Source of the DNA: Centroscyllium fabricii
Lineage: Eukaryota
Direction: 5' to 3'
DNA length: 64,000 nucleotides
Assembly (NCBI GenBank): GCA_051313645.2
Contig: JBNRSN020000031.1
Location: 6,696,001-6,760,000, forward strand
Shown here: positions 1 to 42,933 of the stretch, in pieces
Layout: every line of letters begins with the position of its first letter
How positions within the stretch are numbered: the stretch's first letter is position 1
Translations under genes and position numbers: made by a program
The notes under the pieces: model-generated
Database searches by the model: none
The model's input: the letters and a program-made list of their open reading frames with translations, nothing else
Told to the model about the DNA's origin: nothing

Positions 1-1599
1 AGGCATCTGTAAGGACTACCTATTATATTCACGTAATCACATGCTGAGTTATCATTGGCCCACAGGCATCTGGAAGGACTACCTATTATATTCACGTAAT
101 CACATGCTGAATTATCATTGGACCAAAGGCATCTGTAAGGACTACTATTGTATTCACGTAATCACATGCTGAGTTATCATTGGCCAACAGGCATCTCTAA
201 GGACTACCTATTATATTTATGTAATCACATGCTGAGTTATCATTGGCCTACAGGCATCTCGAAGGACTACCTATTATATTCACATGTACACATGCTGAGT
301 TATCATTGGCCCACAGGCATCTGGAAGGACTACCTATTATATTCACGTAATCACATGCTGAATTATCATTGGACCAAAGGCATCTGTAAGGACTACCTAT
401 TATATTCACGTAATCACATGTTGAGTTATCATTGGCCCACAGGAATCTGTAAGGACTACCTATTATATTCACGTAATCACAAGCTGAATTATCATTGCCC
501 ACAGGCATCTGTAAGGACTACCTATTATATCCACGTAATCACATGCTGAGTTATCATTGGCCCACTGGCATCTGTAAGGACCACCTAATATATTCACGTA
601 ATCACATGCTGAGTTATCATTGGCCCACAGGCATCTGTATGGACCACCTATTATATTCACGTAATCACATGCTGAGTTATCATTGGCCCACAGTCATCTG
701 TAAGGACTACCTATTATATTCACGTAATCACATGCTGAGCTTTCATTGGCCCACAGTCATCTGGAAGGACTACCTATTATATTCACGTAATCACATGCTG
801 AATTATCATTGGACCAAAGGCATCTGTAAGGACTACTATTGTATTCACGTAATCACATGCTGAGATATAATTGGCCCATAGGCATCTGTAAGGACTACCT
901 ATTATATTTACGTAAACACATGCTGAGTTATCATTGGCCCACAGGCTTCTGGAAGGACTACCTATTATATTTACGTAATCACATGCTGAGTTATCATTGG
1001 CCCACAGGCATCTGGAAGGACTACCTATTATATTCACGTAATCACATGCTGAATTATAATTGGACCAAAGGCATCTGTAAGGAATACCTATTATATTCAC
1101 GTAATCACATGTTGAGTTATCATTTGCCCACAGGCATCTGTACGGACTACCTATTATATTCACGTAATCACATGCTGAATTATCATTGCCCACAGGTATC
1201 TGTAAGGACTACCTATTATATTCACGTAATCACATGCTGAGTTATCATTGGCCCACAGGCATCTGTAAGGACTACTATTATATTCACGTAATCACATGCT
1301 TAGTTATCATTGGCCCACAGGCATCTGTAAGGACGACTATTGTATTCACGTAATCAAATGCTGAGTTATCATTGGCCACAGGTATCTGTATGGTCTACTA
1401 TTTTATTCACGTAATCACATGCTGAGTTATCATTGGCCCGCAGGCATCTGTAAGGACTACCTATTCTAATCACGTAATCACATGCTGAGTTATCATTGGC
1501 CCACAGGCATCTGTAAGGACTACCTATTATTTTCACGTAATCACATGCTGAATTATCATTGGACCACAGGCATTTGTAAGGACGACCTATTATATTCAC

Positions 1600-1723
1600 A
1601 AAGTCACACAACACCAGGTTTAAAGTCCAACGTTTTATTTTAAATCACAAGCCTTCGGAGCTTTTGCCCCTTCGTCAGGCAAAGAGAAACTGTTGGACTT
1701 TAAACCTGGTGTTGTGTGACTTT
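1600..1723. repeat. Perfect 32-bp inverted repeat with a 60-bp spacer
   Basis: AAAGTCACACAACACCAGGTTTAAAGTCCAAC (1600-1631) is the exact reverse complement of GTTGGACTTTAAACCTGGTGTTGTGTGACTTT (1692-1723). Confidence 0.97.
1645..1678 (-). ncRNA. Minimal hammerhead ribozyme-like motif, degenerate and probably inactive
   Basis: The minus strand reads CTGACGA-A-GGGGC-AAAA-GCTCC-GAAG-GCTTGTGA: a CUGANGA box, a 5-bp stem II (one G-U pair) with a tetraloop, then GAAG in place of GAAA. No 5' stem I partner is evident. Confidence 0.6.
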
Positions 1724-4700
1724 TTGCATTTGTTCACCCCAGTCCAACACCGGCACCTCCGCATTATGGGAATTATATTCACGTAATCACATGCTGAGTT
1801 ATTATTGGCATACAGGCATCTGTAAGGACTACATATTATATTCACGTAATCACTTGATGAGTTATCATTGGCACACAGGCATCTGTACGGGCTAACTATT
1901 ATACTCCCGTAATAATATTTCTGAGTTATCATTGCCCACAGGCATCTGTAAGGACTACATTTATATTCACATAATCAAATGCTGAGTTATCATTGGCCCA
2001 CAGGCATCTGTAAGGACCACCTATTATATTCAGGTAATCACATGCTAAATTATGATTGGCCCACAGGCATCTGTAAGGACTACCTATTATATTCACGTAA
2101 TCACATGCTGAGTTATCATTGGCCCACAGGCATCTGTAAGGACTACCTGTTATATTCACGTAATTACATGCTGAGTTATCATTCGACAACAGGCATTTGT
2201 AAGGACTACCTATTATATTCACGTATTCACATGCTGAGTTATCATTGGCCCACAGGTATCAGTAAGGACTACCTATTATATTCACGTAATCACATGCTGA
2301 GTTATCATTGGCCCACAGGCAACTGTATGGACTACCTATTATATTCACGTAATCACATGCTGAGTTATCATTGGCCCACAGGTATCTGTAAGGACTTCCT
2401 ATTAAATTCACGTAATCACATACTGAGATATCATTGGCCCACAGGCATTTGGAAGGACTACCTATTATATTCACGTAATCACATGCTGAATTATCATTGG
2501 ACCAAAGGCATCTGTAAGGACTACCTATTATATTCACGTAATCACATGTTGAGTTATCATTGGCCCACAGGCATCTGTATGGACTACTTATTATATTCAC
2601 GTAATCACATGCTGAGTTATCATTGGCCCACAGGCATCTGTAAGGACTACTATTGTATTCACTTAACCACATGCTGAGTTATCATTGGCCCACTGGCATC
2701 TGTAAGGACTACTATTGTATTCACTTAACCACATGCTGAGTTATTATTGGCCGCAGGCATCTGTAAGGACTACCTATTATATTCACGTAATCACATGCTG
2801 AGTTATCATTGGCCCACAGGCATCTGTATGGACCTCGAATTATATTCACGTATTCACATGCTGAGTTATCATTGGCCCACAGGCATCTGTAAGGACTACC
2901 TATTATATTCACGTAATCACATGCTGAGTTATCATTGGCCCACAGGCATCTGGAAGGAGTACCTATTATATTCACGTAATCACATGCTGAATTATCATTG
3001 GACCAAAGGCATCTGTAAGGACTACTATTGTATTCACGTAATCACATGCTGAGATATCATTGGCCCACAGGCATCTGTAAGAACTACCTATTATACTTAC
3101 GTAATCACATGCTGAGTTATCATTGGCCCACAGGCATCTGGAAGGACTACCTATTATATTCACGTAATCACATGCTGAGTTATCATTGGCCCACAGGCAT
3201 CTGGAAGGACTACCTATTATATTCACGTAATCACATGCTGAATTATCATTGGTCCAAAGGCATCTGTAAGGACTACCTATTATATTCACGTAATCACTTG
3301 TTGAGTTATCATTGGCCCACAGGCATCTGTAAGGACTACCTATTATATTCACGTAATCACATGCTGAATTATCATTGGCCCGCAGGCATCTGTAAGGACT
3401 ACCAATTATATTCACGTGATCACATGCTGAGTCATCATTGGCCCACAGGCATCTGTAAGGACTACTATTGTTTTCACGTAATCAAATGCTGAGTTATCAT
3501 TGGCCCACAGGCATCTGTACGGACTACCTATTATATTCAGGTAATCACATGCTGAATTATCATTGGCCCACAGGCATCTGTAAGGACTACATATTATATT
3601 CACGTATTCACATGCTGAGTTATCATTGGCCCACAGGCATCTGTAAGGACTACCTATTATATTCACGTAATCACATGCTGAATTATCATTGGCCCACAGG
3701 CATCTGTAATGACTACCTATTATATTTACGTAATCACATGCTGAGTTATCATTGGCCCGCAGGCATCTGTAAGGACGACCAATTATATTCACGTGATCAC
3801 ATGCTGAGTTATCATTGGCCCACAGGCATCTGTAAGGACTACTATTGTACTCAATTAACCAAATGCTGAGTTATCATTGGCCCACAGGCATCTGTTAGGA
3901 CTACTATTGTATTCACGTAATCACATGCTGAATTACCATTGCCCACAGGTATCTGTAAGGGTTACCTATTATATTCACGTAATCACATGCTGAATTATCA
4001 TTGGCCCGCAGGCATCTGTAAGGATTACCAATTATATTCACGTGATCACTTGCTGAGTTATCATTGGCCCACAGGCATCTGTAAGGACTACTATTGTTTT
4101 CACGTAATCAAATGCTGAGTTATCATTGGCCCACAGACATCTGTAAGGACTACCTATTATATTCAGGTAATCACATGCTGAATTATCATTGGCCCACAGG
4201 CATCTGTAAGGACTACATATTATATTCACGTAATCACATGCTGAGTTATCATTGGCCCACAGGCATCTGTAAGGACTACCTGTTATATTCATGTAATCAC
4301 ATGCTGAGTTATCATTGGCCCACAGGCATTTGTAAGGACTACGTATTATATTCACGTATTCACATGCTGAGTTATCATTGGCCCACAGGCATCTGTAAGG
4401 ACTACCTATTATATTCACGTAATCACATGCTGAGTTATCATTGGCCCACAGGCATCTGTAAGGACTACCTATTATATTCACGTAATCACATGCTGAGATA
4501 TCATTGGCCCACAGACATCTGTAAGGACTATCTATTATATTCATGTATCACATGCTAAGTTATCATTGGACCACAGGCATCTGTAAGGACTACCTATTAT
4601 ATTCACGTAATCACATGCTGAATTATCATTGGCCCACAGGCATCTGTAATGACTACCTATTATATTTACGTAATCACATGCTGAGTTATCATTGGCCCGC

Positions 4701-7700
4701 AGGCATCTGTAAGGACTACCAATTATATTCACGTGATCACATGCTGAGTTATCATTGGCCCACAGGCATCTTTAAGGACTACTATTGTACTCAATTAACC
4801 AAATGCTGAGTTATCATTGGCCCGCAGGCATCTGTAAGGACTACCAATTATATTCACGTGATCACATGCTGTGTTATCATTGGCCCACAGGCATCTGTAA
4901 GGACTACTATTATATTCACGTAATCACAAGCCGAGTTATCATTGGACACCTGGCATCTGTAAGGACTACTATTGTATTCATGTAATCAAACACTGAGATA
5001 TCATTGGCCCACAGGCATCTGTAAGGACTACTATTGTATTCACGTAATCACATGCTGAGTTATCATTGGCCCGCAGGCATCTGTAAGGGCTACCTATTAT
5101 ATTCACGTAATCACATGCTGAGTTATCATTGGCCCACAGGCATCTGTAAGGACTACTATTATATTCACGTAATCATATGCTGAGTTATCATTGGTCCATA
5201 GGCATCTGTAAGGACTACCTATTATATTCACGTAATCAAATGCTGAATTATCATTGTCCCAGAGGCATCTGAAAGGACTACCTATTATAATCACGTAATC
5301 ACATGCTGAGTTATCGTTGGCCCACAGGAATCTGTAAGGACTACCTATTATATTCATGTAATCACATGCTGAGTTATCATTGGCCCACAGGCATCTGTAA
5401 GGACTACCTGTTATATTCACGTAATCACATGCTGAGTTATCATTGGCCCACAGGCATTTGGAATGTCTACCTATTATATTCACGTATTCACATGCTGAGT
5501 TATCATTGGCCCACAGGCATCTGTAAGGACTACCTTTTAAATTCACATAATCACATGCTGAGTTATCATTGGCCCACAGGCATCTGTAAGGACTACCTAT
5601 TATATTCACGTAATCACATGCTGAGTTATCATTGTCCCACAGGTATCTGTAAGGACTACCTATTATATTCACGTAATCACATGCTGCGTTATCATTGTCC
5701 CACAGGCATCTGGAAGGACTACCTATTATATTCACGTAATCACATGCTGAAATATCATTGGACCAAAGGCATCTGTAAGGACTACCTATTATATTCACGT
5801 AATCACATGTTGAGATATCATTGGCCCACAGGCATCTGTAAGGACTACCTATTATATTCACGTAATCACATGTTGAGTTATCATTGGCCCACAGGCATCT
5901 GGAAGGACTATCTATTATATTCACGTAATCACATGCTGAGTTATCATTGGCCACAGGCATCTGTAAGGACAACCTATTATATTCACGTAATCACATGCTG
6001 AGTTATCATTGGCCTGCAGGCATCTGTAAGAAATGCCTATTATATTCACGTAATCAGATGCTGAGTTATCATTGGCCCACAGGCATCTGTAAGGACTACC
6101 TATTATATTCACGTAATCACATGCTGAGTTATCATTGGCCACAGGCATCTGTAAAGACTACCTATTATATTCACGTAATCACATGCTGAGTTATCATTGG
6201 CCCACAGGCATCTGTAAGAACTACCTTTTATATTCACGTAATCACATGCTGAATTATCATTGGCCCACAGGCATCTGGAAGGACTACCTATTATATTCAC
6301 GTAATCACATTCTGATTTATAATTGGCCCACAGGCATCTGGAAGGAATACCTATTATATTCACGTAATCACATGCTGAATTATCATTGGACCAAAGGCAT
6401 CTGTAAGGACTACCTATTATATTCACGTAATCACATGTTAGTTATCATTGGCCCCAGGCATCTGTAAGGGCTACCTATTACATTCAGGTAATCACATGCT
6501 GAATTATCATTGCCCACAGGCATCTGGAAGGACTACCTATAATATTCACGTAATCACATGCTGATTTATCATTGGACCAAAGGCATCTGTAAGGACTAAT
6601 ATTGTATTCATGTAATCACATGCTGAGATATCATTGGCCCACAGGCATCTGTAAGGACTACCTATTATATTTACGTAATTACATGCTGAGTTATCATTGG
6701 CCCACAGGCTTCTGGAAGGACTACCTATTATATTCACGTAATCACATGCTGAGTTATCATTGGCCCACATGCATCTGGAAGGCCTACCTATTATATTCAC
6801 GTAATCACATGCTGAATTATCATTGGACCAAAGGCATCTGTAAGGACTACCTATTATATTCACGTAATCACATGTTGAGTTATCATTGGCCAGCAGGCAT
6901 CTGAAAGGACTACCTATTATATTCAGGTAATCACATGCTGAATTATCATTGCCCACAGGCATCTGTAAGGACTACCCATTATATTCACGTAATCACATGC
7001 TGAGTTATCATTGCCCCACTGGCATCTGTATGGACTACCTATTATATTCACGTAATCACATGCTGAGTTATCATCGGCCCACAGGCATCTGTAAGGACTA
7101 CCTATTATATTCACGTAATCACATGCTGAGTTACCATTGGCCCACAGGCATCTGGAAGGACTACCTATAATATTCACGTATTCACATGCTGAGTTATCAT
7201 TGGCCCACAGGCATCTGTAAGGACTACTATTGTTTTCACGTAATCAAATGCTGAGTTATCATTGGCCCACAGGCATCTGTAAGGACTACCTATTATATTC
7301 AGGTAATCACATGCTGAATTATAATTGGCCCACAGGCATCTGTAAGGACTACATATTATATTCACGTAATCACATGCTGAGTTATCATTGGCCCACAGGC
7401 ATCTCTAAGGACTACCTGTTATATTCATGTAATCACATGCTGACTTATCATTGGCCCACAGACATTTGTAAGGACTACGTGTTATATTCACGTATTCACA
7501 TGCTGAGTTATCATTGGCCCACAGGCATCTGTAAGGATTACCTATTATATTCACGTAATCACATGCTGAATTATCATTGGCCCACAGGCATCTGTAATGA
7601 CTACCTATTATATTTACGTAATCACATGCTGAGTTATCATTGGCCCGCAGGCATCTGTAAGGACTACCAATTATATTCACGTGATCACATGCTGAGTTAT

Positions 7701-10700
7701 CATTGGCCCACAGGCATCTGTAAGGACTACTATTGTACTCAATTAAACAAATGCTGAGTTATCATTGGCCCACAGGCATCTGTAAGGACTACTATTGTAT
7801 TCACGTAATCACATGCTGAGTTATCATTTGCCCGCAGGCATCTGTAAGGACTACCTATTATATTCACGTAATCACATGCTGAATTACCATTGCCCACAGG
7901 TATCTGTAAGGGTTACCTATTATATTCACGTAATCACATGCTGAGTTATCATTGGCCCACAGGATTCTGTAAGGACTACCTATCATATTCACGTAATCAC
8001 ATGCTGAATTAACATTGGCCCGCAGGCATCTGTAAGGTCTACCAATTATTTTCACGTGATCACATGCTGAGTTATCATTGGCCCACAGGCATCTGTAAGG
8101 ACTACTATTGTTTTCACGTAATCAAATGCTGAGTTATCATTGGCCCACAGACATCTGTAAGGACTACCTATTATATTCAGGTAATCACATGCTGAATTAT
8201 CATTGGCCCACAGGCATCTGTAAGGACTACATATTATATTCACGTAATAACATGCTGAGTTATCATTGGCCCACAGGCATCTGTAAGTCTACCTGTTATA
8301 TTCATGTAATCACACGCTGAGTTATCATTGGCCCACAGGCATTTGTAAGGACTACGTATTATATTCACATATTCACATGCTGAGTTATCATTGGCCCACA
8401 GGCATCTGTAAGGACTACCTATTATATTCACGTAATCAAATGCTGAGTTATCATTGGCCCACAGGCATCTGTAAGGCCTACCTATTATATTCACATAATC
8501 ACATGCTGAGATATCATTGGCCCACAGGCATCTGTAAGGACTATCTATTATATTCACGTTATCACATGCTAAGTTATCATTGGCCCACAGGCATCTGTAA
8601 GGACTACCTATTATATTCACGTAATCACATGCTGAATTATCATTGGCCCACAGGCATCTGTAATGACTACCTATTATATTTACGTAATCACATGCTGAGT
8701 TATCATTGGCCCGCAGGCATCTGTAAGGACTACCAATTATATTCACTTGATCACTTGCTGAGTTATCATTGGCCCACAGGCATCTGTAAGGACTACTATT
8801 GTTTTCACGTAATCAAATGCTGAGTTATCATTGGCCCACAGACATCTGTAAGGACTACCTATTATATTCAGGTAATCACATGCTGAATTATCATTGGCCC
8901 ACAGGCATCTGTAAGGACTACATATTATATTCACGTAATCACATGCTGAGTTATCATTGGCCCACAGGCATCTGTAAGGACTACCTGTTATATTCATGTA
9001 ATCACATGCTGAGTTATCATTGGCCCACAGGCATTTGTAAGGACTACGTATTATATTCACGTATTCACATGCTGAGTTATCATTGGCCCACAGGCATCTG
9101 TAAGGACTACCTATTATATTCACGTAATCACATGCTGAGTTATCATTGGCGCACAGGCATCTGTAAGGACTACCTATTATATTCACGTAATCACATGCTG
9201 AGATATCATTGGCCCACAGGCATCTGTAAGGACTATCTATTATATTCATGTAATCACATGCTAAGTTATCATTGGACCACAGGCATCTGTAAGGACTACC
9301 TATTATATTCACGTAATCACATGCTGAATTATCATTGGCCCACAGGCATCTGTAATGACTACCTATTATATTTACGTAATCACATGCTGAGTTATCATTG
9401 GCCCGCAGGCATCTGTAAGGACTAACAATTATATTCACGTGATCACATGCTGAGTTATCATTGGCCCACAGGCATCTGTAAGGACTACTATTTTACTCAA
9501 TTAACCAAATGCTGAGTTATCATTGGCCCGCAGGCATCTGTAAGGACTACCAATTATATTCACGTGATCACATGCTGAGTTATCATTGGCCCACAGGCAT
9601 CTGTAAGGACTACTATTATATTAACGTAATCACAAGCTGAGTTATCATTGGACACCTGGAATCTGTAAGGACTACTATTGTATTCACGTAATCAAACACT
9701 GAGATATCATTGGCCCACAGGCATCTGTAAGGACTACTATTGTATTCAGGTAATCACATGCTGAGTTATCATTGGCCCGCAGGCATCTGTAAGGGCAACC
9801 TATTATATTCACGTAATCACATGCTGAGTTATCATTGGCCCACAGGCATCTGTAAGGACTACTACTATATTCACGTAATCATATGCTGAGTTATCATTGG
9901 TCCATAGGCATCTGTAAGGACCACCTATTATATTCACGTAATCAAATGCTGTATTATCATTGTCCCAGAGGCATCTGTAAGGACTACCTATTATAATCAC
10001 GTAATCACATGCTGAGTTATCATTGGCCCACAGGAATCTGTAAGGACTACCTATTATATTCATGTAATCACATGCTGAGTTATCATTGGCCCACAGGCAT
10101 CTGTAAGGACTACCTGTTATATTCACGTAATCACATGCTGAGCTATCATTGGCCCACAGGCATTTGGAAGGACTACTTATTATATTCACGTATTCACATG
10201 CTGAGTTATCATTGGCCCACAGCCATCTGTAAGGACTACCTTTTATATTCACATAATCACATGCTGAGTTATCATTGGCCCACAGGCATCTGTAAGGACT
10301 ACCTATTATATTCACGTAATCACATTCTGAGTTATCATTGTCCCACAGGTATCTGTAAGAACTACCTATTATATTCACGTAATCACATGCTGCGTTATCA
10401 TTGTCCCACAGGCATCTGGAAGGACTACCTATTATATTCACGTAATCACATGCTGAAATATCATTGGACCAAAGGCATCTGTAAGGACTACCTATTACAT
10501 TCAAGTAATCACATGTTGAGATATCATTGGTCCACAGGCATCTGTAAGGACTACCTATTATATTCACATAATCAAATGTTGAGTTATCATTGGCCCACAG
10601 GCATCTGGAAGGACTATCTATTATATTCACGTAATCACATGCTGAGTTATCATTGGCCACAGGCATCTGTAAGGACAACCTATTATATTCACGTAATCAC

Positions 10701-13700
10701 ATGCTGAGTTATCATTGGACTGCAGGCATCTGTAAGAACTGCCTATTATATTCACGTAATCGGATGCTGAGTTATCATTGGCCCACAGGCATCTGTAAGG
10801 ACTACCTATTATATTCACGTAATCACATGCTGAGTTATCATTGGCCCACAGGCATCTGTAAGAACTATCTTTTATATTCACGTAATCACATGCTGAATTA
10901 TCATTGGCCCACAGGCATCTGGAAGGACTACCTATTATATTCACGTAATCACATTCTGATTTATAATTGGCCCACAGGCATCTGGAAGGACTACCTACTA
11001 TATTCACGTAATCACATGCTGAATTATCATTGGACCAAAGGCATCTGTAAGGACTACCTATTATATTCACATAATCACATGTTGAGTTATCATTGGCCCC
11101 AGGCATCTGTAAGGACTACCTATTATATTCAGGTAATCACCTGCTGAATTATCATTGCCCACAGGCATCTGGAAGGACTACCTATAATATTCACGTAATC
11201 ACATGCTGATTTATCATTGGACCAAAGGCATCTGTAAGGACTAATATTGTATTCACGTAATCACATGCTGAGATATCATTGGCCCACAGGCATCTGTAAG
11301 GACTACCTATTATATTTACGTAATCACATGCTGAGTTATCATTGGCCCACATGCATCTGGAAGGCCTACCTATTATATTCACGTAATCACATGCTGAATT
11401 ATCATTGGACCAAAGGCATCTGTAAGGACTACCTATTATATTCACGTAATCACATGTTGAGTTATCATTGGCCCGCAGGCAACTGTAAGGACTACCTATT
11501 ATATTCAGGTAATCACATGCTGAATTATCATTGCCCACAGGCATCTGTAAGGACTACCTATTATATTCACGTAATCACATGCTGAGTTATCATTGCCCCA
11601 CTGGCATCTGTATGGACTACCTATTATATTCACGTAATCACATGCTGAGTTATCATCGGCCCACAGGCATCTGTAAGGACTACCTATTATATTCACGTAA
11701 TCACATGCTGAGTTATCATTGGCCCACAGGCATCTGGAAGGACTACCTATAATATTCACGTATTCACATGCTGAGTTATCATTGGCCCACAGGCATCTGT
11801 AAGGACTACTATTGTTTTCACGTAATCAAATGCTGAGTTATCATTGGCCCACAGGCATCTGTAAGGACTACCTATTATATTCAGGTAATCACATGCTGAA
11901 TTATCATTGGCCCACAGGCATCTGTAAGGACTACATATTATATTCACGTAATCACATGCTGAGTTATCATTGGCCCACAGGCATCTGTAAGGACTACCTG
12001 TTATATTCATGTAATCACATGCTGAGTTATCATTGGCCCACAGGCATTTGTAAGGACTACGTATTATATTCATGTATTCACATGCTGAGTTATCATTGGC
12101 CCACAGGCATCTGTAATGAATACCTATTATATTTACGTAATAACATGCTGAGTTATCATTGGCCCGCAGGCATCTGTAAGGACTACCAATTATATTCACG
12201 TGATCACATGCTGAGTTATCATTGGCCCACAGGCATCTGTAAGGACTACTATTGTACTCAATTAAACAAATGCTGAGTTATCATTGGCCCACAGGCATCT
12301 GTAAGGACTACTATTGTATTCACGTAATCACATGCTGAGTTATCATTGGCCCGCAGGCATCTGTAAGGACTACCTATTATATTCACGTAATCACATGCTG
12401 AATTACCATTGCCCACAGGTATCTGTAAGGGTTACCTATTATATTCACGTAATCACATGCTGAGTTATCATTGGCCCACAGGATTCTGTAAGGACTACCT
12501 ATTATATTCACGTAATCACATGCTGAATTATCATTGGCCCGCAGGCATCTGTAAGGACTACCAATTATATTCACGTGATCACATGCTGAGTTATCATTGG
12601 CCCACAGGCATCTGTAAGGACAACTATTGTTTTCACGTAATCAAATGCTGAGTTATCATTGGCCCACAGACATCTGTAAGGACTACCTATTATATTCAGG
12701 TAATCACATGCTGAATTATCATTGGCCCACAGGCATCTCTAAGGACTACATATTATATTCACGTAATCCCATGCTGAGTTATCATTGGCCCACAGGCATC
12801 TGTAAGGACTACCTGTTATATTCATGTAATCACATGCTGAGTTATCATTGGCCCACAGGCATTTGTAAGGACTACGTATTATATTCACATATTCACATGC
12901 TGAGTTATCATTGGCCCACAGGCATCTGTAAGGGCTACCTATTATATTCACGTAATCACATGCTGAGTTATCATTGGCCCACAGGCTTCTGTATGGCCTA
13001 CCTATTATATTCACGTAATCACATGCTGAGATATCATTGGCCCACAGGCATCTGTAAGGACTATCTATTATATTCACGTAATCACATGCTAAGTTATCAT
13101 TGGCCCACAGTCATCTGTAAGGACTACCTATTATATTCATGTAATCACATGCTGAATTATCATTGGCCCACAGGCATCTGTAATGACTACCTATTATATT
13201 TACGTAATCACATGCTGAGTTATCATTGGCCCGCAGGCATCTGTAAGGACTACCAATTATATTCTCGTGATCACATGCTGAGTTATCATTGGCCCACAGG
13301 CATCTGTAAGGACTACTATTGTACTCAATTAACCAAATGCTGAGTTATCATTGGCCCACAGGCATCTGTAAGGACGACTATTGTATTCACGTAATCACAT
13401 GCTGAGTTATCATTGGCCCGCAGGCATCTGTAAGGACCACCTATTATATTCACGTAATCACACGCTGAGTTATCATTGGCCCACAGGCATCTGTAAGGAC
13501 TACTATTATATTCACGTATTCACAAGCTGAGTGATCATTGGCCCACTGGCATCTGTAAGGACTACTATTGTATTCACGTAATCAAACGCTGAGATATCAT
13601 TGGCCCACAGGCATCTGTAAGGACTGCTATTGTATTCACGTAATCACATGCTGAGTTATCATTGGCCCGCAGGCATCTGTATGGGCTACCTATCATATTC

Positions 13701-16700
13701 ACGTAATCACATGCTGAGTTATCATTGGCCCACAGGCATCTGTAAGGACTACTATTATATTCACGTAATCATATGCTGAGTTATCATTGGCCCATAGGCA
13801 TCTGCAAGGACTACCTATTATATTCACGTAATCAAATGCTGAATTATCATTGTCCCAGAGGCATCTGTAAGGACTACCTATTATAATCACGTAATCACAT
13901 GCTGAATTTTCATTGGCCCACATGAATCTGTAAGGACTACCTATTATATTCATGTAATCACATGCTGAGTTATCATTGGCCCACAGGCATCTGTAAGGAC
14001 TACCTGTTATATTCACGTAATCACATGCTGAGTTATCATTGGCCCACAGGCATTTGGAAGGACTACCTATTATATTCACGTATTCACATGCTGAGTTATC
14101 ATTGGCCCACAGGCATCTGTAAGGACTACCTTTTATATTCACGTAATCACATGCTGAATTATCATTGGCCAACAGGCATCTGTAAGGAATACCTATTATA
14201 TTGACGTAATCAGATGCTGAGTTATCATCGGCCAACAGTCATCTGTAAGGACAACTTATTGTATTCATGTAATCACATGCTGAGTTTTCATTGGCCCACA
14301 GTCATCTGTAAGGACTACCTATTATATTCACATAATCACATGCTGAGTTATCATTGGCCCACAGGCATCTGGAAGGACTACCTATAATATTCACGTAATC
14401 ACATGCTGATTTATCATTGGCCCACAGGCATCTGTAAGGACAACTATTGTTTTCACGTAATCAAATGCTGAGTTATCATTGGCCCACAGACATCTGTAAG
14501 GACTACCTATTATATTCAGGTAATCACATGCTGAATTATCATTGGCCCACAGGCATCTGTAAGGACTACATATTATATTCACGTAATCACATGCTGAGTT
14601 ATCATTGGCCCACAGGCATCTGTAAGGACTACCTGTTATATTCATGTAATCACATGCTGAGTTATCATTGGCCCACAGGCATTTGTAAGGACTACGTATT
14701 ATATTCACATATTCACATGCTGAGTTATCATTGGCCCACAGGCATCTGCAAGGACTACCTATTATATTCACGTAATCACATGCTGAGTTATCATTGGCCC
14801 ACAGGCATCTGTATGGCCTACCTATTATATTCACGTAATCACATGCTGAGATATCATTGGCCCACAGGCATCTGTAAGGACTATCTGTTATATACACGTA
14901 ATCACATGCTAAGTTATCATTGGCCCACAGGCATCTGTAAGGACTACCTATTATATTCACGTAATCACATGCTGAATTATCATTGGCCCACAGGCATCTG
15001 TAATGACTACCTATTATATTTACGTAATCACATGCTGAGTTATCATTGGCCCGCAGGCATCTGTAAGGACTACCAATTATATTCTCGTGATCACATGCTG
15101 AGTTATCATTGGCCCACAGGCATCTGTAAGGACTACTATTGTACTCAATTAACCAAATGCTGAGTTATCATTGGCCCACAGGCATCTGTAAGGACTACTA
15201 TTATATTCACGTAATCACATGCTGAGTTATCATTGGCCCGCAGGCATCTGTAAGGACCACCTATTATATTCACGTAATCACACGCTGAGTTATCATTGGC
15301 CCACAGGCATCTGTAAGGACTACTATTATATTCACGTATTCACAAGCTGAGTTATCATTGGCCCACTGGCATCTGTAAGGGCTACTATTGTATTCACGTA
15401 ATCAAACGCTGAGATATCATTGGCCCACAGGCATCTGTAAGGACTGCTATTGTATTCACGTAATCACATGCTGAGTTATCATTGGCCCGCAGGCATCTGT
15501 ATGGGCTACCTATTATATTCACGTAATCACATGCTGAGTTATCATTGGCACACAGGCATCTGTAAGGACTACTATTATATTCACGTAATCATATGCTGAG
15601 TTATCATTGGCCCATAGGCATCTGTAAGTACTACCTATTATATTCACGTAATCAAATGCTGAATTATCATTGTCCCAGAGGCATCTGTAAGGACTACCTA
15701 TTATAATCACGTAATCACATGCTGAATTATCATTGGCCCACAGGAATCTGTAAGGACTACCTATTATATTCATGTAATCACATGCTGAGTTATCATTGGC
15801 CCACAGGCATCTGTAAGGACTACCTGTTATATTCACGTAATCACATGCTGAGTTATCATTGGCCCACAGGCATTTGGAAGGACTACCTATTATATTCACG
15901 TATTCACATGCTGAGTTATCATTGGCCCACAGGCATCTGTAAGGACTACCTTTTATATTCACGTAATCACATGCTGAATTATCATTGGCCAACAGGCATC
16001 TGTAAGGAATACCTATTATATTCACGTAATCATATGCTGAGTTATCATCGGCCAACAGTCATCTGTAAGGACAACTTATTGTATTCAAGTAATCACATGC
16101 TGAGTTATCATTGGCCCACAGTCATCTGTAAGGACTACCTATTATATTCACATAATCACATGCTGAGTTATCATTGGCCCACAGGCATCTGGAAGGACTA
16201 CCTATAATATTCACGTAATCACATGCTGATTTATCATTGGACCAAATGCATCTGTAAGGACTAATATTGTATTCACGTAATCACATGTTGAGATATCATT
16301 GGCCCACAGGCATCTGTAAGGACTACCTATTATATTTACGTAATCACATGCTGAGTTATCATTGGCCCACATGCATCTGGAAGGCCTACCTATTATATTC
16401 ACGTAATCACATGCTGAATTATCATTGGACCAAAGGCATCTGTAAGGACTGCCTATTATATTCACGTAATCACATGTTGAGTTATCATTGGCCCGCAGGC
16501 ATCTGTAAGGACTACCTATTATATTCAGGTAATCACATGCTGAATTATCATTGCCCACAGGCATCTGTAAGGACTACCTATTATATTCACGTAACCACAT
16601 GCTAAGTTATCATTGCCCCACTGGCATCTGTATGGACTACCTATTATATTCACGTAATCACATGCTGAGTTATCATCGGCCCACAGGCATCTGTAAGGAC

Positions 16701-19700
16701 TACCTATTATATTCACGTAATCACATGCTGAGTTATCATTGGCCCACAGGCATCTGGAAGGACTACCTATAATATTCACGTATTCACATGCTGAGTTATC
16801 ATTGGCCCACAGGCATCTGTAAGGACTACTATTGTTTTCACGTAATCAAATGCTGAGTTATCATTGGCCCACAGGCATCTGTAAGGACTACCTATTATAT
16901 TCAGGTAATCACATGCTGAATTATCATTGGCCCACAGGCATCTGTAAGGACTACATATTATATTCACGTAATCACATGCTGAGTTATCATTGGCCCACAG
17001 GCATCTGTAAGGACTACCTGTTATATTCATGTAATCACATGCTGAGTTATCATTGGCCCACAGGCATTTGTAAGGACTACGTATTATATTCATGTATTCA
17101 CATGCTGAGTTATCATTGGCCCACAGGCATCTGTAAGGATTACCTATTATATTCACGTAATCACATGCTGAATTATCATTGGCCCACAGGCATCTGTAAT
17201 GACTACCTATTATATTTACGTAATAACATGCTGAGTTATCATTGGCCCGCAGGCATCTGTAAGGACTACCAATTATATTCACGTGATCACATGCTGAGTT
17301 ATCATTGGCCCACAGGCATCTGTAAGGACTACTATTGTACTCAATTAAACAAATGCTGAGTTATCATTGGCCCACTGGCATCTGTAAGGACTACTATTGT
17401 ATTCACGTAAACACATGCTGAGTTATCATTGGCCCGCAGGCATCTGTAAGGACTACCTATTATATTCACGTAATCACATGCTGAATTACCATTGCCCACA
17501 GGTATCTGTAAGGGTTACCTATTATATTCAGGTAATCACATGGTGAGTTATCATTGGCCCACAGGATTCTGTAAGGACTACCTATTATATTCACGTAATC
17601 ACATGCTGAATTATCATTGGCCCGCAGGCATCTGTAAGGACTACCAATTATATTCACGTGATCACATGCTGAGTTATCATTGGCCCACATGCATCTGTAA
17701 GGACAACTATTGTTTTCACGTAATCAAATGCTGAGTTATCATTGGCCCACAGACATCTGTAAGGACTACCTATTATATTCAGGTAATCACATGCTGAATT
17801 ATCATTGGCCCACAGGCATCTGTAAGGACTACATATTATATTCACGTAATCACATGCTGAGTTATCATTGGCCCACAGGCATCTGTAAGGACTACCTGTT
17901 ATATTCATGTAATCACATTCTGAGTTATCATTGGCCCACAGGCATTTGTAAGGACTACGTATTATATTCACATATTCACATGCTGAGTTATCATTGGCCC
18001 ACAGGCATCTGTAAGGACTACCTATTATATTCACGTAATCACATGCTGAGTTATCATTGGCCCACAGGCATCTGTATGGCCTACCTATTATATTCACGTA
18101 ATCACATGCTGAGATATCATTGGCCCACAGGCATCTGTAAGGACTATCTATTATATTCACGTAATTACATGCTAAGTTATCATTGGCCCACAGGCATCTG
18201 TAAGGACTACCTATTATATTCACGTAATCACATGCTGAATTATCATTGGCCCACAGGCATCTGTAATGACTACCTATTATATTTACGTAATCACATGCTG
18301 AGTTATCATTGGCCCGCAGGCATCTGTAAGGACTACCAATTATATTCTCGTGATCACATGCTGAGTTATCATTGGCCCACAGGCATCTGTAAGGACTACT
18401 ATTGTGCTCAATTAACCAAATGCTGAGTTATCATTGGCCCACAGGCATCTGTAAGGACTACTATTGTATTCACGTAATCACATGCTGAGTTATCAATGGC
18501 CCGCAGGCATCTGTAAGGACCACCTATTATATTCACGTAATCACACGCTGAGTTATCATTGGCCCACAGGCATCTGTAAGGACTACTATTATATTCACGT
18601 ATTCACAAGCTGAGTTATCATTGGCCCACTGGCATCTGTAAGGACTACTATTGTATTCACGTAATCAAACGCTGAGATATCATTGGCCCACAGGCATCTG
18701 TAAGGACTGCTATTGTATTCACGTAATCACATGCTGAGTTATCATTGGCCCGCAGGCATCTGTATGGGCTACCTATTATACTCACGTAATCACATGCTGA
18801 GTTATCATTGGCCCACAGGCATCTGTAAGGACTACAATTATATTCACGTAATCATATGCTGAGTTATCATTGGCCCATAGGCATCTGTAAGGACTACCTA
18901 TTATATTCACGTAATCAAATGCTGAATTATCATTGTCCCAGAGGCATCTGTAAGGACTACCTATTATAATCACGTAATCACATGCTGAATTATCATTGGC
19001 CCACAGGAATCTGTAAGGACTACCTATTATATTCATGTAATCACATGCTGAGTTATCATTGGCCCACAGGCATCTGTAAGGACTACCTGTTATATTCACG
19101 TAATCACATGCTGAGTTATCATTGGCCCACAGGCATTTGGAAGGACTACCTATTATATTCACGTATTCACATGCTGAGTTATCATTGGCCCACAGGCATC
19201 TGTAAGGACTACCTTTTATATTCACGTAATCACATGCTGAATTATCATTGGCCAACAGGCATCTGTAAGGAATACCTATTATATTCACGTAATCATATGC
19301 TGAGTTATCATCGGCCAACAGTCATCTGTAAGGACAACTTATTGTATTCAAGTAATCACATGCTGAGTTATCATTGGCCCACAGTCATCTGTAAGGGCTA
19401 CCTATTATATTCACATAATCACATGCTGAGTTATCATTGGCCCACAGGCATCTGTAAGGACTACCTATTATATTCACGTAATCACATGCTGAGTTATCAT
19501 TGGCCCACAGGTATCTGTAAGGACTACCTATTATATTCACGTAATCACATGCTGCGTTATCATTGTCCCACAGGCATCTGGAAGGACTACCAATTTTATT
19601 CACGTAATCACATGCTGAATTATCATTGGACCAAAGGCATCTGTAAGGACTACCTATTATATTCACGTAATCACATGTTGAGTTATCATTGGCCCACAGG

Positions 19701-22700
19701 CATCTGTAAGGACTACCTATTATATTCACGTAATCACATGTTGAGTTATCATTGGCCTACAGGCATCTGGAAGGTCTATCTATTATATTCACGTAATCAC
19801 ATGCTGAGTTATCATTGGCCACAGGCATCTGTAAGGACAACCTATTATATTCACGTAATCACATGCTGAGTTATCATTGGCCCACAGGCATCTGTAAGGA
19901 CTACCTATTATATTCACGTAATCAAATGCTGAGTTATCATTGGCCTGCAGGCATCTGTAAGAACTGCCTATTATATTCACGTAATCAGATGCTGAGTTAT
20001 CATTGGCCCACAGGCATCTGTAAGGACTACCTATTATATTCACGTAATCACATGCTGAGTTATCATTGGCCACAGGCATCTGTAAAGACTACCTATTATA
20101 TTCACGTAATCACATGCTGAGTTATCATTGGCCCACAGGCATCTGTAAGAACTACCTTTTATATTCACGTAATCACATGCTGAATTATCATTGGCCACAG
20201 GCATCTGAAAGGACTACCTATTATATTCACGTAATCACATTCTGATTTATCATTGGCCAACAGGCATCTGGAAGGACTACCTATTATATTCACGTAATCA
20301 CATGCTGAATTATCATTGGACCAAAGGCATCTGTAAGGACTACCTATTATATTCAGGTAATCACATGCTGAATTATCATTGCCCACAGGCATCTGTAAGG
20401 ACTACCTATTATATTCACGTAATCACATGCTGAGTTATCATTGCCCCACTGGCATCTGTATGGACTACCTATTATATTCACGTATTCACATGCTGAGTTA
20501 TCATTGGCCCACAGGCATCTGTAAGGACTACCTTTTATATTCACGTAATCACATGCTGAATTATCATTGGCCCACAGGCATCTGTAAGGACTACCTATTA
20601 TATTCACGTAATCATATGCTGAGTTATCATCGGCCAACAGTCATCTGTAAGGACAACATATTGTATTCAAGTAATCACATGCTGAGTTATCATTGGCCCA
20701 CAGGCATCTGTAAGGACTACCTATTATATTCACATAATCACATGCTGAGTTATCATTGGCCCACAGGCATCTGTAAGGACTACCTATTATATTCACGTAA
20801 TCTCATGCTGAGTTATCATTGGCCCACAGGTATCTGTAAGGACTACCTATTATATTCACGTAATCACATGCTGCGTTATCAATGTCCCACAGGCATCTGG
20901 AAGGACTACCAATTATATTCACGTAATCACATGCTGAATTATCATTGGACCAAAGGCATCTGTAAGGACTACCTGTTATATTCACGTAATCACATGTTGA
21001 GTTATCATTGGCCCACAGGCATCTGTAAGGACTACCTATTATATTCACGTAATCACATGTTGAGTTATCATTGGCCCACAGGCATCTGGAAGGACTATCT
21101 ATTATATTCACGTAATCACATGCTGAGTTATCATTGGCCACAGGTATCTGTAAGGACAACCTATTATATTCACGTAATCACATGCTGAGTTATCATTGGC
21201 CCACAGGCATCTGTAAGGACTACCTATTATATTCACGTAATCAAATGCTGAGTTATCATTGGCCTGCAGGCATCTGTAAGAACTGCCTATTATATTCACG
21301 TAATCAGATGCTGAGTTATCATTGGCCCACAGGCATCTGTAAGGACTACCTTTTATATTCACGTAATCACATGCTGAATTATCATTGGCCAACAGGCATC
21401 TGTAAGGACTACCTATTATATTCACGTAATCATATGCTGAGTTATCATCGGCCAACAGTCATCTGTAAGGACAACTTATTGTATTCAAGTAATCACATGC
21501 TGAGTTATCATTGGCCCACTGGCATCTGTATGGACTACCTATTATATTCACGTAATCACATTCTGAGTTATCATCGGCCCACAGGCATCTGGAAGGACTA
21601 TCTATAATATTCACGTAATCACATGCTGATTTATCATTGGACCAAAGGCATCTGTAAGGACTAATATTGTATTCACGTAATCACATGCTGAGTTATCATT
21701 GGCCCGCAGGCATCTGTAAGAACTACCAATTATATTCACGTGATCACATGCTGAGTTATCATTGGCCCACAGGCATCTGTAAGGACTAGTATTGTACTCA
21801 ATTAACCAAATGCTGAGTTATCATTGGCCCACATTCATCTGTAAGGACTACTATTGTATTCACGTAATCACATGCTGAGTTATCATTGGCCCGCAGGCAT
21901 CTGTAAGGACCACCTATTATATTCACGTAATCACACGCTGGGTTATCATTGGCCCACAGGCATCTTTAAGGACTACTATTATATTCACGTATTCACAAGC
22001 TGAGTTATCATTGGCCCACTGGCATCTGTAAGGACTACTATTATATTCACGTAATCAAACGCTGAGATATCATTGGCCCACAGGCATCTGTAAGGACTAC
22101 TATTGTATTCACGTAATCACATGCTGAGTTATAATTGGCCCGCAGGCATCTGTATGGGCTTCCTATTATATTCACGTAATCACATGCTGAGTTATCATTG
22201 GCCCACAGGCATCTGTAAGGACTACTATTATATTCACGTAATCATATGCTGAGTTATCATTGGCCCATAAGCATCTGTAAGGACTACCTATTATATTCAC
22301 GTAATCAAATGCTGAATTATCATTGTCCCAGAGGCATCTGTAAGGACTACCTATTATTATCACGTAATCACATGCTGAATTATCATTGGCCCACAGGAAT
22401 CTGTAAGGACTACCTATTATATTCATGTAATCACATGCTGAGTTATCATTGGCCCACAGGCATCTGTAAGGACTACCTGTTATATTCACGTAATCACATG
22501 CTGAGTTATCATTGGCCCACAGGCATTTGGAAGGACTACCTATTATATTCACGTATTCACATGCTGAGTTATCATTGGCCCACAGGCATCTGTAAGGACT
22601 ACCTTTTATATTCACGTAATCACATGCTGAATTATCATTGGCCAACAGGCATCTGTAAGGACTACCTATTATATTTACGTAATCATATGCTGAGTTATCA

Positions 22701-25041
22701 TTGGCCCACAGGCATCTGTAAGGACAACTTATTGTATTCAAGTAATCATATGCTGAGTTATCATTGGCCCACAGGCATCTGTAAGGACTACCTATTATAT
22801 TCACATAATCACATGCTGAGTTATCATTGGCCCACAGGCATCTGTAAGGACTACCTATTAATTTAACGTAATCACATGCTGAGTTATCATTGGCCCACAG
22901 GTATCTGTAAGGACTACCTATTATATTCACGTAATCACATGCTGCGTTATCATTGTCCCACAGGCATCTGGAAGGACTACCTATTATATTCACGTAATCA
23001 CATGCTGAATTATCATTGGACCAAAGGCATCTGTAAGGACTACCTATTATATTCAGGTAACCACATGCTGAATTATCATTGCCCACAGGCATCTGTAAGG
23101 ACTACCTATTATATTCACGTAATCACATGCTGAGTTATCATTGCCCCACTGGCATCTGTATGGACTACCTATTATATTCACGTAATCACATTCTGAGTTA
23201 TCATCGGCCCACAGGCATCTGGAAGGACTATCTATAATATTCACGTAATCACATGCTGATTTATCATTGGACCAAAGGCATCTGTAAGGACAAATATTGT
23301 ATTCACGTAATCACATGCTGAGATATAATTGGCCCACAGGCATTTGTAAGGACTACCTATTATATTCACGTAATCACATGCTGAATTATCATTGGACCAA
23401 AGGCATCTGTAAGGACTACCTATTATATTCACGTAATCACATGTTGAGTTATCATTGGCCACCATGCATCTGTAAGGAATACCTATTATATTCACGTAAT
23501 CACATGCTGAATTATCATTGCGCACAGGCATCTGTAAGGACTACCTATTATATTCACGTAATCACATGCTGAGTTATCATTGGCCCAATGGCATCTGTAA
23601 GGACTACTAATGTATTCACTTAACCACATGCTGAGTTATCATTGTCCGCAGGCATCTGTAAGGACTACCCATTATATTCACGTAATCACATGCTGTGTTA
23701 TCATTGGCCCATAGGCATCTGTAAGGACTACTATTGTATTCACGTAATCAAATGCTGAGTTATTATTGGCCTGCAGCCATCTGTAAGGACAACTAATATA
23801 TTCACGTAATCACATGCTGAGTTATCATTGGCCCACAGGCATCTGTAAGGACTTCCCATTGTATTAACTTAATCACATGCTGAGTTATCATTGGCCCACA
23901 GGCATCTGTAAGGTCTACTATTGTATACACGTAATCAAATGCTGAGTTATTATTGGCCTACAGGCATCTGTAAAGACTACTATTATATTCACTTAATCAC
24001 ATGCTGAGTTATCATTGGCCCACTGGCATCTGTAAGGACTACTATTGTATTCACGTAATCAAATGCTGTGTTATCATTGGCCCACATGCATCTGTAAGGA
24101 CTACTATTTTATTCACGTAATCACATGCTGAGTTATCATTGGCCCGCAGGCATCTGTAAGGACTACGTATTATATTCACGTATCCACATGCTGAATTATC
24201 ATTGGATGAAAGGCATCTGTAAGGACTGCCTATTATATTCACGTAATCACATGTTGAGTTATCATTGGCCCACAGGCATCTGTAAGGACTACCTATTATA
24301 TTCACGTAATCGCAAGCTGAATTATCATTGCCCACAGGCATCTGTAAGGACTACCTATTATATTCACGTAATCACATGCTGAGTTATCTTTGGCCCACTG
24401 GCATCTGTAAGGACTACTATTGTATTCACTTAACCACATGCTGAGTTATCATTGGCCGGAGGCATCTGTAAGGACTACCTATTATATTCACGTAATCACA
24501 TGCTGAGTTATCATTGGCCCACAGGCATCTGTATGGACTACCTATTATATTCACGTAATCACATGCTGAGTTATCATTGGGCCACAGGCATCTGTAAGGA
24601 CTACCTATTATATTCACGTAATCACATGCTGAGTTATCATTGGCCCACAGGCATCTGGAAGGACTATCTATTATATTCACGTAATCACATGCTGAGTTAT
24701 CATTGGCCACAGGCATCTGTAAGGTCAACCTATTATATTCACGTAATCACATGCTGAGTTATCATTGGCCCACAGGCATCTGTAAGGACTACCTATTATA
24801 TTCACGTAATCACATGCTGAGTTATCATTGGGCCACAGGCATCTGTAAGGACTACCTATTATATTCACGTAATCACATGCTGAGTTATCATTGGCCCACA
24901 GGCATCTGGAAGGACTATCTATTATATTCACGTAATCACATGCTGAGTTATCATTGGCCACAGGCATCTGTAAGGTCAACCTATTATATTCACGTAATCA
25001 CATGCTGAGTTATCATTGGCCCACAGGCATCTGTAAGGACT

Positions 25042-25053
25042 ACCTATTATATT
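25042..25053 (+). repeat. Left target-site duplication of LINE copy 1
   Basis: ACCTATTATATT occurs at 25042-25053 and again at 28157-28168, bracketing the element. Confidence 0.9.
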
Positions 25054-28000
25054 ATGTTTAAACTAATTCTGCCACCACCATATACGCAAAGGATCTATCT
25101 CAGCGAAAAACGTCTGACAAAGCGACCAACATCATGCCCGGAGACCGAAGCAGACGTCGGTGTCAAAAACTCGGGTCTTCTTCAAGACCGGCACTGACTG
25201 TTTTGTCTGCAAATATGGAAGGGCTGTCAGCAGCGAAACAAGATCTACTCGCTGCGATTTGCAAGGAAATGCAATGCGACGTCCTATGCCTACAAGAGAC
25301 ACATCGCGGCAGTGAAAACAATCGCCCTGCGATACCCAAAATGACTATGGCAATTGAAAGACCACATCGCCAATACGGAAGTGCCATCTTCATCAAAACG
25401 GACTCAGTCATAGAAGCTACAGCTAAAACGGAGGTAAACAACATCGAAATTCTAACGGTAGAGTTTAGCAGAGCCATGGTCACCTCTGTGTATAAACCTC
25501 CAAATGTAGAATTCACTTTCACAAATCCCCTACCAAACCCGCATAACAAGGCGCAGATTGTAATCGGAGACTTCAACAGTCACAACACCCAATGGGGGTA
25601 CACTGAAACTAATTCTGATGGAGAAGCAGTGGAGGAATGGATGGACGCCAACCAGCTTAGCCTCATCCACGACCCGAAACAGCTGAGTTCCTTCAACAGT
25701 GCTAGATGGAAGCGGGGATCCAACCCAGACCTTGTATTAACAAGCAATAACATCGCTGGCTCCAGTAAGAAACTTGTTTTGGATGTAATACCAAGAACGC
25801 AACACCGCCCCATTGGTGTCCAGATACAAGCTGCAGTGGTACCAACCACTGTCCCATTTAGAAGACGCTTCAATTTTAAAAAGGCAAACTGGGAAGAATT
25901 CACACAAGAACTGGATCATAAGGCCAGATACATCAAACCACTCCCAGAGAATTACTGCCTGTTCATCAAAGCAGTTCAGAAAACAGCTAGAAGGAAAATC
26001 CCCCGAGGATGCAGGATGAATTACATCCCTGGCCTAACCCCTGAGAATGCTGAACTTTATAATGACTACATCACCATGTTCGAATCTGATCCCTTCTCCG
26101 AAGAAACAATAACAACAGGAGAACAGCTGATGATCAGTATCTCCCAAGAGCGCCAAAACACCTGGAATACTCTGATAGAGACAACGGACATGTCAAAGAA
26201 CAGCAAGAAAGCATGGGCTCTCATTCACAAACTCGGAGGAAATCCGAAGACAACCAAAGAACACTGCAACACCACTGCTGAACAAGTTGCCCACCAACTG
26301 CTGCTGAATGGAAAAGGCCCTAAGAAACGACAACAAAAAGCCAAACTAGACCGAAAAACGTACCATGCAAACCCAGGCTTCACAAGACCTTTCACTATGA
26401 CTGAACTGGAAACAGGAATACATAGTTTGAAACCAGGGAAAGCAGTTGGTCTGGATAACATCGCAACAGAGCAGATCAAGTACTTTGGAGAACAAACAAA
26501 GGTATGGCTCCTCAACCTATTCAATAACTGTATGGCTACACATAAGCTTCCAAACATCTGGCTCAAGGCACATGTACTAGCACTCCTGAAACCAGGGAAG
26601 GACCCGTCTTATCCTAAAAGTTTCCGGCCAATCTCACTTCTATGTCACACATACAAGCTGTTTGAGCGCCTGATACTGAACAGGATTGCACCATCCATAG
26701 ACGAGAAGATCATCCCAGAGCAAACAGGGTTCCGTCCAGGCAAATCGACAACCAGCCAACTCGTCAACCTCACTCAACACATTGAGGATGGATTTGAGAG
26801 AGGACAGATTACCGGTGCTGTTTTCGTGGACTTGTCTGCTGCCTACGACACAGTCAACCACAGACGACTCCTATGTAAGATCCTGGAGATCACAAAAGAC
26901 ACCGACCTAACAGAGCTAATGGAAGCCATGCTCCAGAACCGCAGATTCTACGTCGAATTAGGCGGAAAACGTAGCAGATGGCGCAACCAGAAGAATGGCC
27001 TCCCACAAGGCAGCGTGCTTGCCCCACTTCAGTACAACATCTATACAAACGACCAACCCAGAGATGATGTCACCCGTCGTTTTGCATATGCAGATGACCT
27101 GTGCATCACCGCCCAAGGAACAGACTTCATTAGTATTGAGGAAACGCTCAACGACGCCCTCTCAGGATTAACAACCTACTATGAAGAGAGCCATCTACGT
27201 GCCAACCCAGCAAAAACACAAGTATGCGCTTTTCACCTGAGAAACAAGGAAGCTAAGCGCCAACTGAATGTGTCTTGGTGTGGAATACCACTGTCACACT
27301 CTGAGCACCATGTCTACCTCGGAGTCACACTCGACAGATGCCTTACATTCAAAACCCACATCATGAAGACAAAGGCAAAAGTGAGCACCCGCAACAACAT
27401 CCTGCGCAAACTCGCCAACACCAGATGGGGTGCATGTCCCAAGACACTACGTGCCACAGCCCTTGCCCTCAGCTTCTCTACTGCAGAATATGCCAGCCCA
27501 GCGTGGGAAAGATCCACCCATGCTAAAAAACTGGACCCCGCTCTTAACGAGAGCTGCAGATGTATCACTGGGTGCCTGAAGCCCACTAACACCAACGACC
27601 TGTACATCCTGGCAGGTATCGCCCCTCCAGACATCAGAAGAGCGGTAGCCAGCAGGACAGAGCGGCGCAGGCAAACCACAGATGAGAGGCACCCCCTACA
27701 TGGCCATGTACCTGCCCCCAGCCGACTAAAATCACGGAGAAGTTTCCTGACCAGCACTGCTCCACTGGAGACAACACCATCTGAAGCCCGCCTTAAAATG
27801 TGGAAGGAAAAGCTGTCCAAACACCCACACACCTCGACTATGCTCATCCCCCCTGCTGAAACCCTCCCACCAGGAGATAACAACTGGGCAAAATGGAAGT
27901 GCTTGAACCGACTCCGCTCAGGTGTTGGCCGTTCCAGGGAAGCCCTAAGCAGATGGGGTTATCTTAGTGGCCCAACCACATGTGACTGTGGCACAGAACC

Positions 28001-42727: not shown

Positions 42728-42933
42728 TTTTATCCGCAGGCAGTGCGCCTACTGAACGGCTAACGGCAACTGTTATTATCTGTTATTAATTGTTTTTTTT
42801 TATACTTACACTTGTTCTACTTTTACTCGTGCTTTTTTCTTTATAAGTGTGGGAGTGAACGGGGAGTAAGCATTCCATTGTACTTGTTACATATGGCAAA
42901 TAAAGGATCTTGTATCTTGTATCTTGTATCTTG
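42728..42933 (+). mobile_element. 5'-truncated Rex1/Babar-like LINE 3' end, copy 2
   Basis: Same sequence and junctions as 29435-29640 (offset 13293). Confidence 0.8.

Follow-up and report, generated by a model that had tools for sequence, protein, structure and literature searches.

A short head-to-head insertion in a 63-bp satellite, almost certainly from a Penelope-like element, and its sister insertions

Endonuclease-bearing (EN+) Penelope-like elements (PLEs) of the Neptune clade have a single ORF in which a reverse transcriptase (RT) is followed by a C-terminal GIY-YIG domain, with DKG, CCHH and CX2-5CxxC linker motifs. They form partial tandems that give pLTRs, and their copies can show an inverted 5' truncation, a target site duplication (TSD), a tail of 30-40 bp at one end and an ORF that starts inside the pLTR or tail (PMC8557442 and PMC3846280). 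An inverted, 5'-truncated copy with a one-sided tail has already been described (PMC8557442), as have inverted pLTRs with TSDs and palindromes at their junctions (PMC3846280) and pairs of hammerheads on opposite strands, 100-700 bp apart (PMC4209133). The origin of PLE inverted repeats has been named as an open question (PMC8557442). Neptune and Poseidon are both found in vertebrates (bioRxiv 10.64898/2026.07.22.740005), and Poseidon has no linker before GIY-YIG (PMC8557442). For a PLE protein of the anole, cutting and extension of both strands have been shown in vitro (PMC11167929).

The locus studied here lies in a window of 64,000 nucleotides, by which we mean the whole stretch of DNA analysed. 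The window is made up of a 63-bp satellite plus a few inserts, the satellite array runs on past both window ends, and one of the inserts is almost certainly the stub of a PLE. Its parent family is like the Neptune elements in all of the features listed above. The tail has 46 nt in the window copy, and the modal ends of sister copies lie at -37 and about 0. The window insert, however, carries none of the coding sequence past the ATG. Here the TSDs measure 11-14 bp, whereas rotifer examples have 8-10 bp (PMC8557442), and stem II of the hammerhead has 5 bp, compared with 7-8 bp in examples from Schistosoma (PMC4209133). Set against the hammerheads of metazoan PLEs, the window copy has one hammerhead, with A15.1 changed to G (PMC4209133). 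Coelacanth and Xenopus have about 4,000-9,000 hammerheads (PMC4209133), compared with at least 152,249 core matches here, counts that were obtained by different search methods. The Poseidon element of the green anole, which belongs to a different clade, is alike in having two fixed ends that bracket the tail and AT-rich targets, but its ORF starts in hammerhead stem II and reverse transcription begins about 111-118 nt into the ORF, whereas here the tail ends at the ATG (PMC11167929). Non-LTR retrozymes are also short, non-coding, hammerhead-bearing and PLE-derived, but in these every unit of a head-to-tail tandem has its own hammerhead, whereas the window insert is a head-to-head singleton (bioRxiv 10.64898/2026.07.22.740005).

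The insert and its parent family

The insert (1600-1771, 172 bp) is flanked by an 11-bp TSD, ATTATATTCAC, and the satellite unit is restored once the insert and one TSD copy are taken out (Table 1). This confirms the size and duplication given in a first-pass annotation of the window, which had also correctly noted that the same 32-mer restarts on the plus strand, as a perfect 32-bp inverted repeat was found. The extension of about 48 bp beyond that repeat had been given the right length, but it consists of 46 nt of element plus two extra bases, which were likely added without a template. Between 1600 and 1691, 91 of 92 nt are identical to a subfamily copy (L111); base 1692 is common to both arms, giving a single shared base at the junction, and the outer end of the tail-less arm lies 43 nt before the ATG of the ORF. 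The tail carries a single C→T change, at 1734, so that the two arms together differ from L111 by two substitutions, the other being the hammerhead A15.1→G. No poly(A) follows the AATAAA on the minus strand. The predicted minus-strand fold of the insert has an energy of -76.8 kcal/mol (z -7.9), which none of 200 shuffles equalled.

Table 1. Features of the insert and its surroundings, in window coordinates
Feature	Position	Strand	Basis
Left TSD copy, 11 bp, satellite sequence	1589..1599	+	sequence
Tail-less inverted arm, PLE 3' UTR/pLTR end	1600..1692	-	match to subfamily copy L111
Left stem of perfect 32-bp inverted repeat	1600..1631	+	
AATAAA hexamer of pLTR	1634..1639	-	sequence; also in sister copies
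Minimal type I hammerhead (predicted)	1645..1682	-	layout read against the minimal-PLE-hammerhead description in PMC4209133
Right stem of 32-bp inverted repeat, inner start of tailed arm	1692..1723	+	
PLE tail, 46 nt, ending one base past the ORF ATG (1766-1768)	1724..1769	+	
Two bases matching neither element nor TSD	1770..1771	+	comparison with full-length unit
Right TSD copy	1772..1782	+	
Host 63-bp satellite array, duplicated along with the inserted element	1..63997	+	

Both arms match the 3' end (pLTR) of a unit of 3,142 bp whose ORF, starting with an ATG at the end of the tail, specifies an RT and GIY-YIG protein of 890 aa. The full unit comes from a tandem locus (L117) of head-to-tail 3,142-bp units that are 99.5% identical; together with a 942-bp direct repeat at another locus (L118), it displays the partial-tandem organization that forms pLTRs. 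RT and GIY-YIG coding sequence is also present at a locus where two hammerheads, separated by 2.7 kb, face outward, and the exact hammerhead subtype of the window copy, which has 1,757 genome matches, adjoins RT/EN frames at two loci (L223 and L082). In Pfam the ORF has an RVT_1 match (E 8e-10). No match to GIY-YIG, and none specific to PLEs, came from Pfam, NCBIfam or PDB, and the matches in PDB and NCBIfam were weak, generic RT ones. C-terminal GIY-YIG, CCHH and CX4CxxC motifs, as defined in PMC8557442, can be read from the sequence, and GIY-YIG clusters are among the look-alikes in the Atlas (31% and 18% of members), which gives no more than a lead; a putative GIY-YIG endonuclease is assigned from these motifs and that lead. 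The CX4CxxC linker and CCHH point to Neptune/Nematis, and the clade is probably Neptune. The expectation that homologues adjoin an RT and GIY-YIG ORF was borne out, and the full-length copies that were read showed no link to a transposase, which had been named as contrary evidence. The TSD has the length usual in the family, and the earlier reading of the insert as a complete Penelope-type integration product stands.

The PLE family is young and very abundant, and it has intact ORFs. Its own genome of 7.2 Gb holds 33,196 matches for one hammerhead subtype set and 9,617 for the tail, and the full 919-codon frame was present in about 21 of 150 scored matches, counted by eye. Look-alikes scored in a first genome search (40 of 3,871 candidates) have similar outer ends and varied inner junctions. 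Between subfamilies (L076-L086, L117 and sister loci) the RT stretch is 99% identical while the 3' UTR and the hammerhead loop differ, which implies a much higher rate of change in the UTR than in the ORF. The start of the hammerhead core is altered in one subfamily (L099, L109, L112, L151).

To judge how typical the stub is, we used the first 100 of the 9,617 tail matches by position, which span the initial 107 Mb of a single contig; matches had to be exact over 35 nt of the tail, so the sample favours young copies. Simple inverted copies make up 70 of these 100 (62/88 and 8/12), and 30 are not of this kind. The remainder of the first 88 comprises 18 non-inverted copies, three tandem or complex ones, two that ran off the fetched DNA, two open-ended inversions and one complex inversion. 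A clear TSD is often absent from the non-inverted copies, of which just 5/18 have one of at least 11 nt. After removal of three duplicates and of four copies without a TSD of at least 11 nt, 55 of the 62 inverted copies could be measured, with arm ends taken as BLAST boundaries that may be off by a few bases. Insertion lengths range from 139 to 3,997 bp (median 284 bp), and 6/55 are at most 175 bp. TSDs are 11-14 bp long in 54/59 sisters and 69% AT; that of the window copy starts with ATT. Tail-less outer ends fall between -26 and -47 from the ATG, with a mode at -37, and tail ends between -3 and +10 around its A. The 172-bp stub is short, yet ordinary for a PLE family with thousands of sister insertions, and the earlier description of it as extremely short was overstated, given that the shortest sister has 139 bp. 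The insert itself matters little, its structure having already been described; the interest may sit in the family. One fold-back PLE insertion (L108, L115, L131, L132, also L014 and L019) lies inside another dispersed repeat and was spread with it, and three such rows were dropped as non-independent.

The exact junction of the insert occurs four times in the genome, always on the contig of the window (C834, 43 Mb), so the claim that the insert is unique holds within the window but not beyond it. The four insert copies are identical. Their right flanks differ at 10-12 of 1,500 nt, compared with 152-258 for eight other in-phase satellite stretches. Since the junction occurs in one satellite array only, one insertion was copied with the satellite and spread by its duplication. 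On the left side, about 130 of 1,500 nt distinguish the window copy from the other three, and one flank has therefore been reshuffled. The four copies can be used as markers of array duplication. Along C834, at about 4.87-6.77 Mb, satellite surrounds insert copies that lie about 1.8 Mb apart.

The hammerhead motif and insertion ends near its predicted cut site

The first-pass annotation had placed a hammerhead core, followed by AATAAA, on the minus strand. Both are present, the hammerhead-like motif lying between the stems of the inverted repeat, but the core of the window copy reads CUGACGA...GAAG, not GAAA. Stem I is formed by 1679-1682/1645-1648 and stem II by 1666-1670/1657-1661, with the core at 1672-1678, an extra A at 1671, G12-A14 at 1654-1656 and the mutated 15.1, a G, at 1653; the predicted cut would lie between 1649 and 1648. 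A15.1 is kept in all of the 100 subfamily matches listed of 1,757. Because A15.1→G breaks the conserved core, the hammerhead of the window copy is probably impaired. The annotation had further proposed that a read-through transcript would form a hairpin enclosing the ribozyme motif; in the predicted fold of such an RNA, stem II forms, with a pairing value of about 0.8, and stem I, at 0.0, does not.

At the level of the family, the motif has CUGANGA, GAAA, UH, an extra base after A9 and a palindromic stem III, and reads as a textbook minimal PLE hammerhead. A loose core pattern has 152,249 genome matches, compared with 22 for a reversed control. Over 26 variants picked by core patterns, 95.3% of stem cells are paired (slid controls 25-57%). 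As to covariation, which the annotation had named as a check, the same variants show one-sided changes in 3/9 pairs of stems I and II and two-sided changes in none, with no excess over shuffles. The proposed Rfam search gave no hammerhead match for the window at the gathering score, host satellite included, or for 1560-1820 at E<=10, which is unsurprising for a minimal variant, while the family itself keeps the CUGANGA/GAAA core. Weak Rfam miRNA matches were discarded, as they merely reflect the hairpin.

A first look at the sister copies showed five arm ends at the predicted cut site. A targeted search for arms ending near the cut covered the first 100 of 486 matches (L227-L311). Counted from one base after the cut and going upstream, the ends of all 100 arms number 13, 14, 9, 7, 5 and 2. 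Of these arms, 83 are joined to other element sequence, and their ends are confounded by palindromes and by the search pattern. Among the 17 solos, which have nothing but genomic sequence upstream, 16 fall in the 10-base test range, and 8 of the 16 begin at the cut or one base before it (binomial p 0.007 against a uniform distribution, post hoc and with small n). An enrichment of 'furthest ends' (41 compared with 19) was set aside because both arms were sometimes counted, some solos were misclassified and the pattern excludes joins centred on the stem III palindrome. These ends suggest that cleaved RNA is sometimes the template for insertion. In the anole study, no RNA reads were found to end at the hammerhead cut site (PMC11167929). 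The window copy, for which copying went past an uncut hammerhead, has no part in the pile-up at the cut site. Among the literature listings searched, none reports arm-length coupling in PLEs or insertion ends at the cut site. If true, these ends would be in vivo evidence of cleavage by a minimal PLE ribozyme and of retrotransposition of its 3' product, and the sister insertions would form a genome-scale record of the PLE copying mechanism.

Origin of the inverted arms

We consider it fairly probable that the head-to-head stub arose in one event, with reverse transcription primed from the two cut ends of the target. Across the 55 independent copies (TSD at least 11 nt), the lengths of the two arms are correlated (Spearman rho 0.78) and lie within 10 nt of each other in 25, compared with a mean of 4.6 and a maximum of 13 in 20,000 shuffles. 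The tailed arm is longer by more than 30 nt in 10/55, and the tail-less arm in another 10/55. Junctions show microhomology of 1-8 nt in 39 copies, are blunt in eight and have 1-6 extra nucleotides in eight; equal-length joins are found at 7/55, and that of L174 has neither loop nor overlap. Identity between the two arms is 99.4% (65 differences over 10,348 nt, 53 copies), and pairs that differ by more than two in the diagnostic 75 nt number 3/35, compared with 442/595 random pairs. On inspection, the three deviating pairs reflect shifts or point changes within one subtype. In the window copy, the tail-less arm has 93 nt and the tailed arm 78 nt, reaching 85 and 24 nt upstream of a common anchor.

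Coupled arm lengths and same-subfamily arms suggest that one RNA was copied twice from two nicks. Fold-back self-priming would predict both equally well, and subfamilies active at different times would likewise give same-subfamily arms. LINE-1 twin priming is alike in that two target ends prime cDNA on one RNA and the inverted 5' part is joined by microhomology, but its two parts derive from stretches of the RNA that do not overlap. Here, by contrast, the two arms are copies of one and the same 3' stretch, and each has a fixed outer end.

In the proposed sequence of events, which is built from end products and from in vitro work on a PLE of another clade (Poseidon), the GIY-YIG endonuclease would nick both strands about 11 nt apart, as judged from the TSD. 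One nick may then prime cDNA at the ATG of the ORF and the other about 40 nt upstream; the ends are observed, and the anole PLE likewise has two internal RT start sites that bracket the tail and match the two fixed outer ends (PMC11167929). Both cDNAs likely copy the same RNA, which would be left intact by an RT in which no RNase H was detected. In the window copy, judging from the lengths of the arms, one cDNA of 93 nt would have crossed the uncleaved hammerhead while the other stopped after 78 nt. The 3' ends of the cDNAs would be joined by microhomology or bluntly and then filled in. Finally, as observed, the insert gained its two substitutions, one at hammerhead A15.1, and satellite duplication then brought it to four copies. 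A broader and less probable reading of the sister insertions is that one RNA is reverse-transcribed twice, from the two nicks and two start sites, that synthesis of both cDNAs tends to finish by run-off at a shared RNA 5' end ahead of joining, and that some of these 5' ends are made by the hammerhead.

With the same PLE identity, a single cDNA or antisense RNA could instead fold back and be copied, the endonuclease resolving the hairpin so that the tail is left on one arm. We think this unlikely, although coupled arm lengths and nearly identical arms fit it well. Self-priming of antisense RNA has been proposed on the basis of palindromes at the junctions (PMC3846280); here, too, the hammerhead flanks provide short complementary stretches near the junction of the window copy, and similar junctions recur in other subfamilies, in a query-biased sample. 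However, snap-back of a tail-primed cDNA cannot lengthen the tail-less arm, which is the longer one here and by more than 30 nt in the 10 copies noted above. Equal-length joins on 2-6-nt palindromes or without a loop are hard to obtain as hairpins, and the two outer ends coincide with in vitro RT start sites on sense RNA (PMC11167929). The antisense-RNA version withstands the objection from long tail-less arms, and self-priming on an antisense template is the main rival to priming from both cut ends.

A longer inverted insertion could also have been shortened after integration by a deletion across the palindrome centre, which we regard as improbable even though long palindromes are unstable. 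Microhomology-mediated deletions are reported for PLEs (PMC3846280), but the window copy is young (two substitutions compared with its subfamily) and is the same at all four sites. There are also short, non-palindromic solo insertions with TSDs, and short cDNAs are therefore made directly. Least probable of all is that the 172-bp unit is mobile in its own right, as a non-autonomous element (MITE-, SINE- or retrozyme-like) that spreads by transcription and re-insertion. The first search did give many look-alikes of 156-185 bp with similar outer ends and TSDs of their own, but their inner junctions vary and carry different subfamily markers, lengths are continuous from 139 to 3,997 bp, and the exact junction is confined to the four satellite copies with shared flanks. 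The tandem array that retrozymes require, with hammerheads in two or more consecutive units (bioRxiv 10.64898/2026.07.22.740005), is absent. A self-propagating mini-family was rejected as largely refuted by the confinement of the junction to one array; a MITE or DNA transposon, by the right repeat, which sits 48 nt inside the end and is not terminal, the variable lengths and the partner ORF with RT and GIY-YIG; and a non-LTR retrozyme, by the single hammerhead and head-to-head arms. The window insert is a dead-end stub that shows no sign of a function of its own.

Other inserts in the window

Two copies of a 3,103-bp non-LTR retrotransposon, with five differences between them, lie at 25054-28156 and 38033-41135. 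The element has a 12-bp TSD and a short GAA-repeat end, and an open frame of 1,019 codons, in which AP endonuclease and RT domains are found, is preserved in both copies; we take it to resemble Vingi/Ingi elements. Three identical 206-bp inserts (29435-29640, 42728-42933 and 46687-46892) end in a 7-bp tandem repeat. Their first codons presumably resemble the C-terminus of a LINE ORF, and they probably represent a LINE truncated to its 3' end; a clear TSD is missing. Together with the LINE pair, the 206-bp inserts mark recent satellite duplications of about 13 kb and 4 kb.
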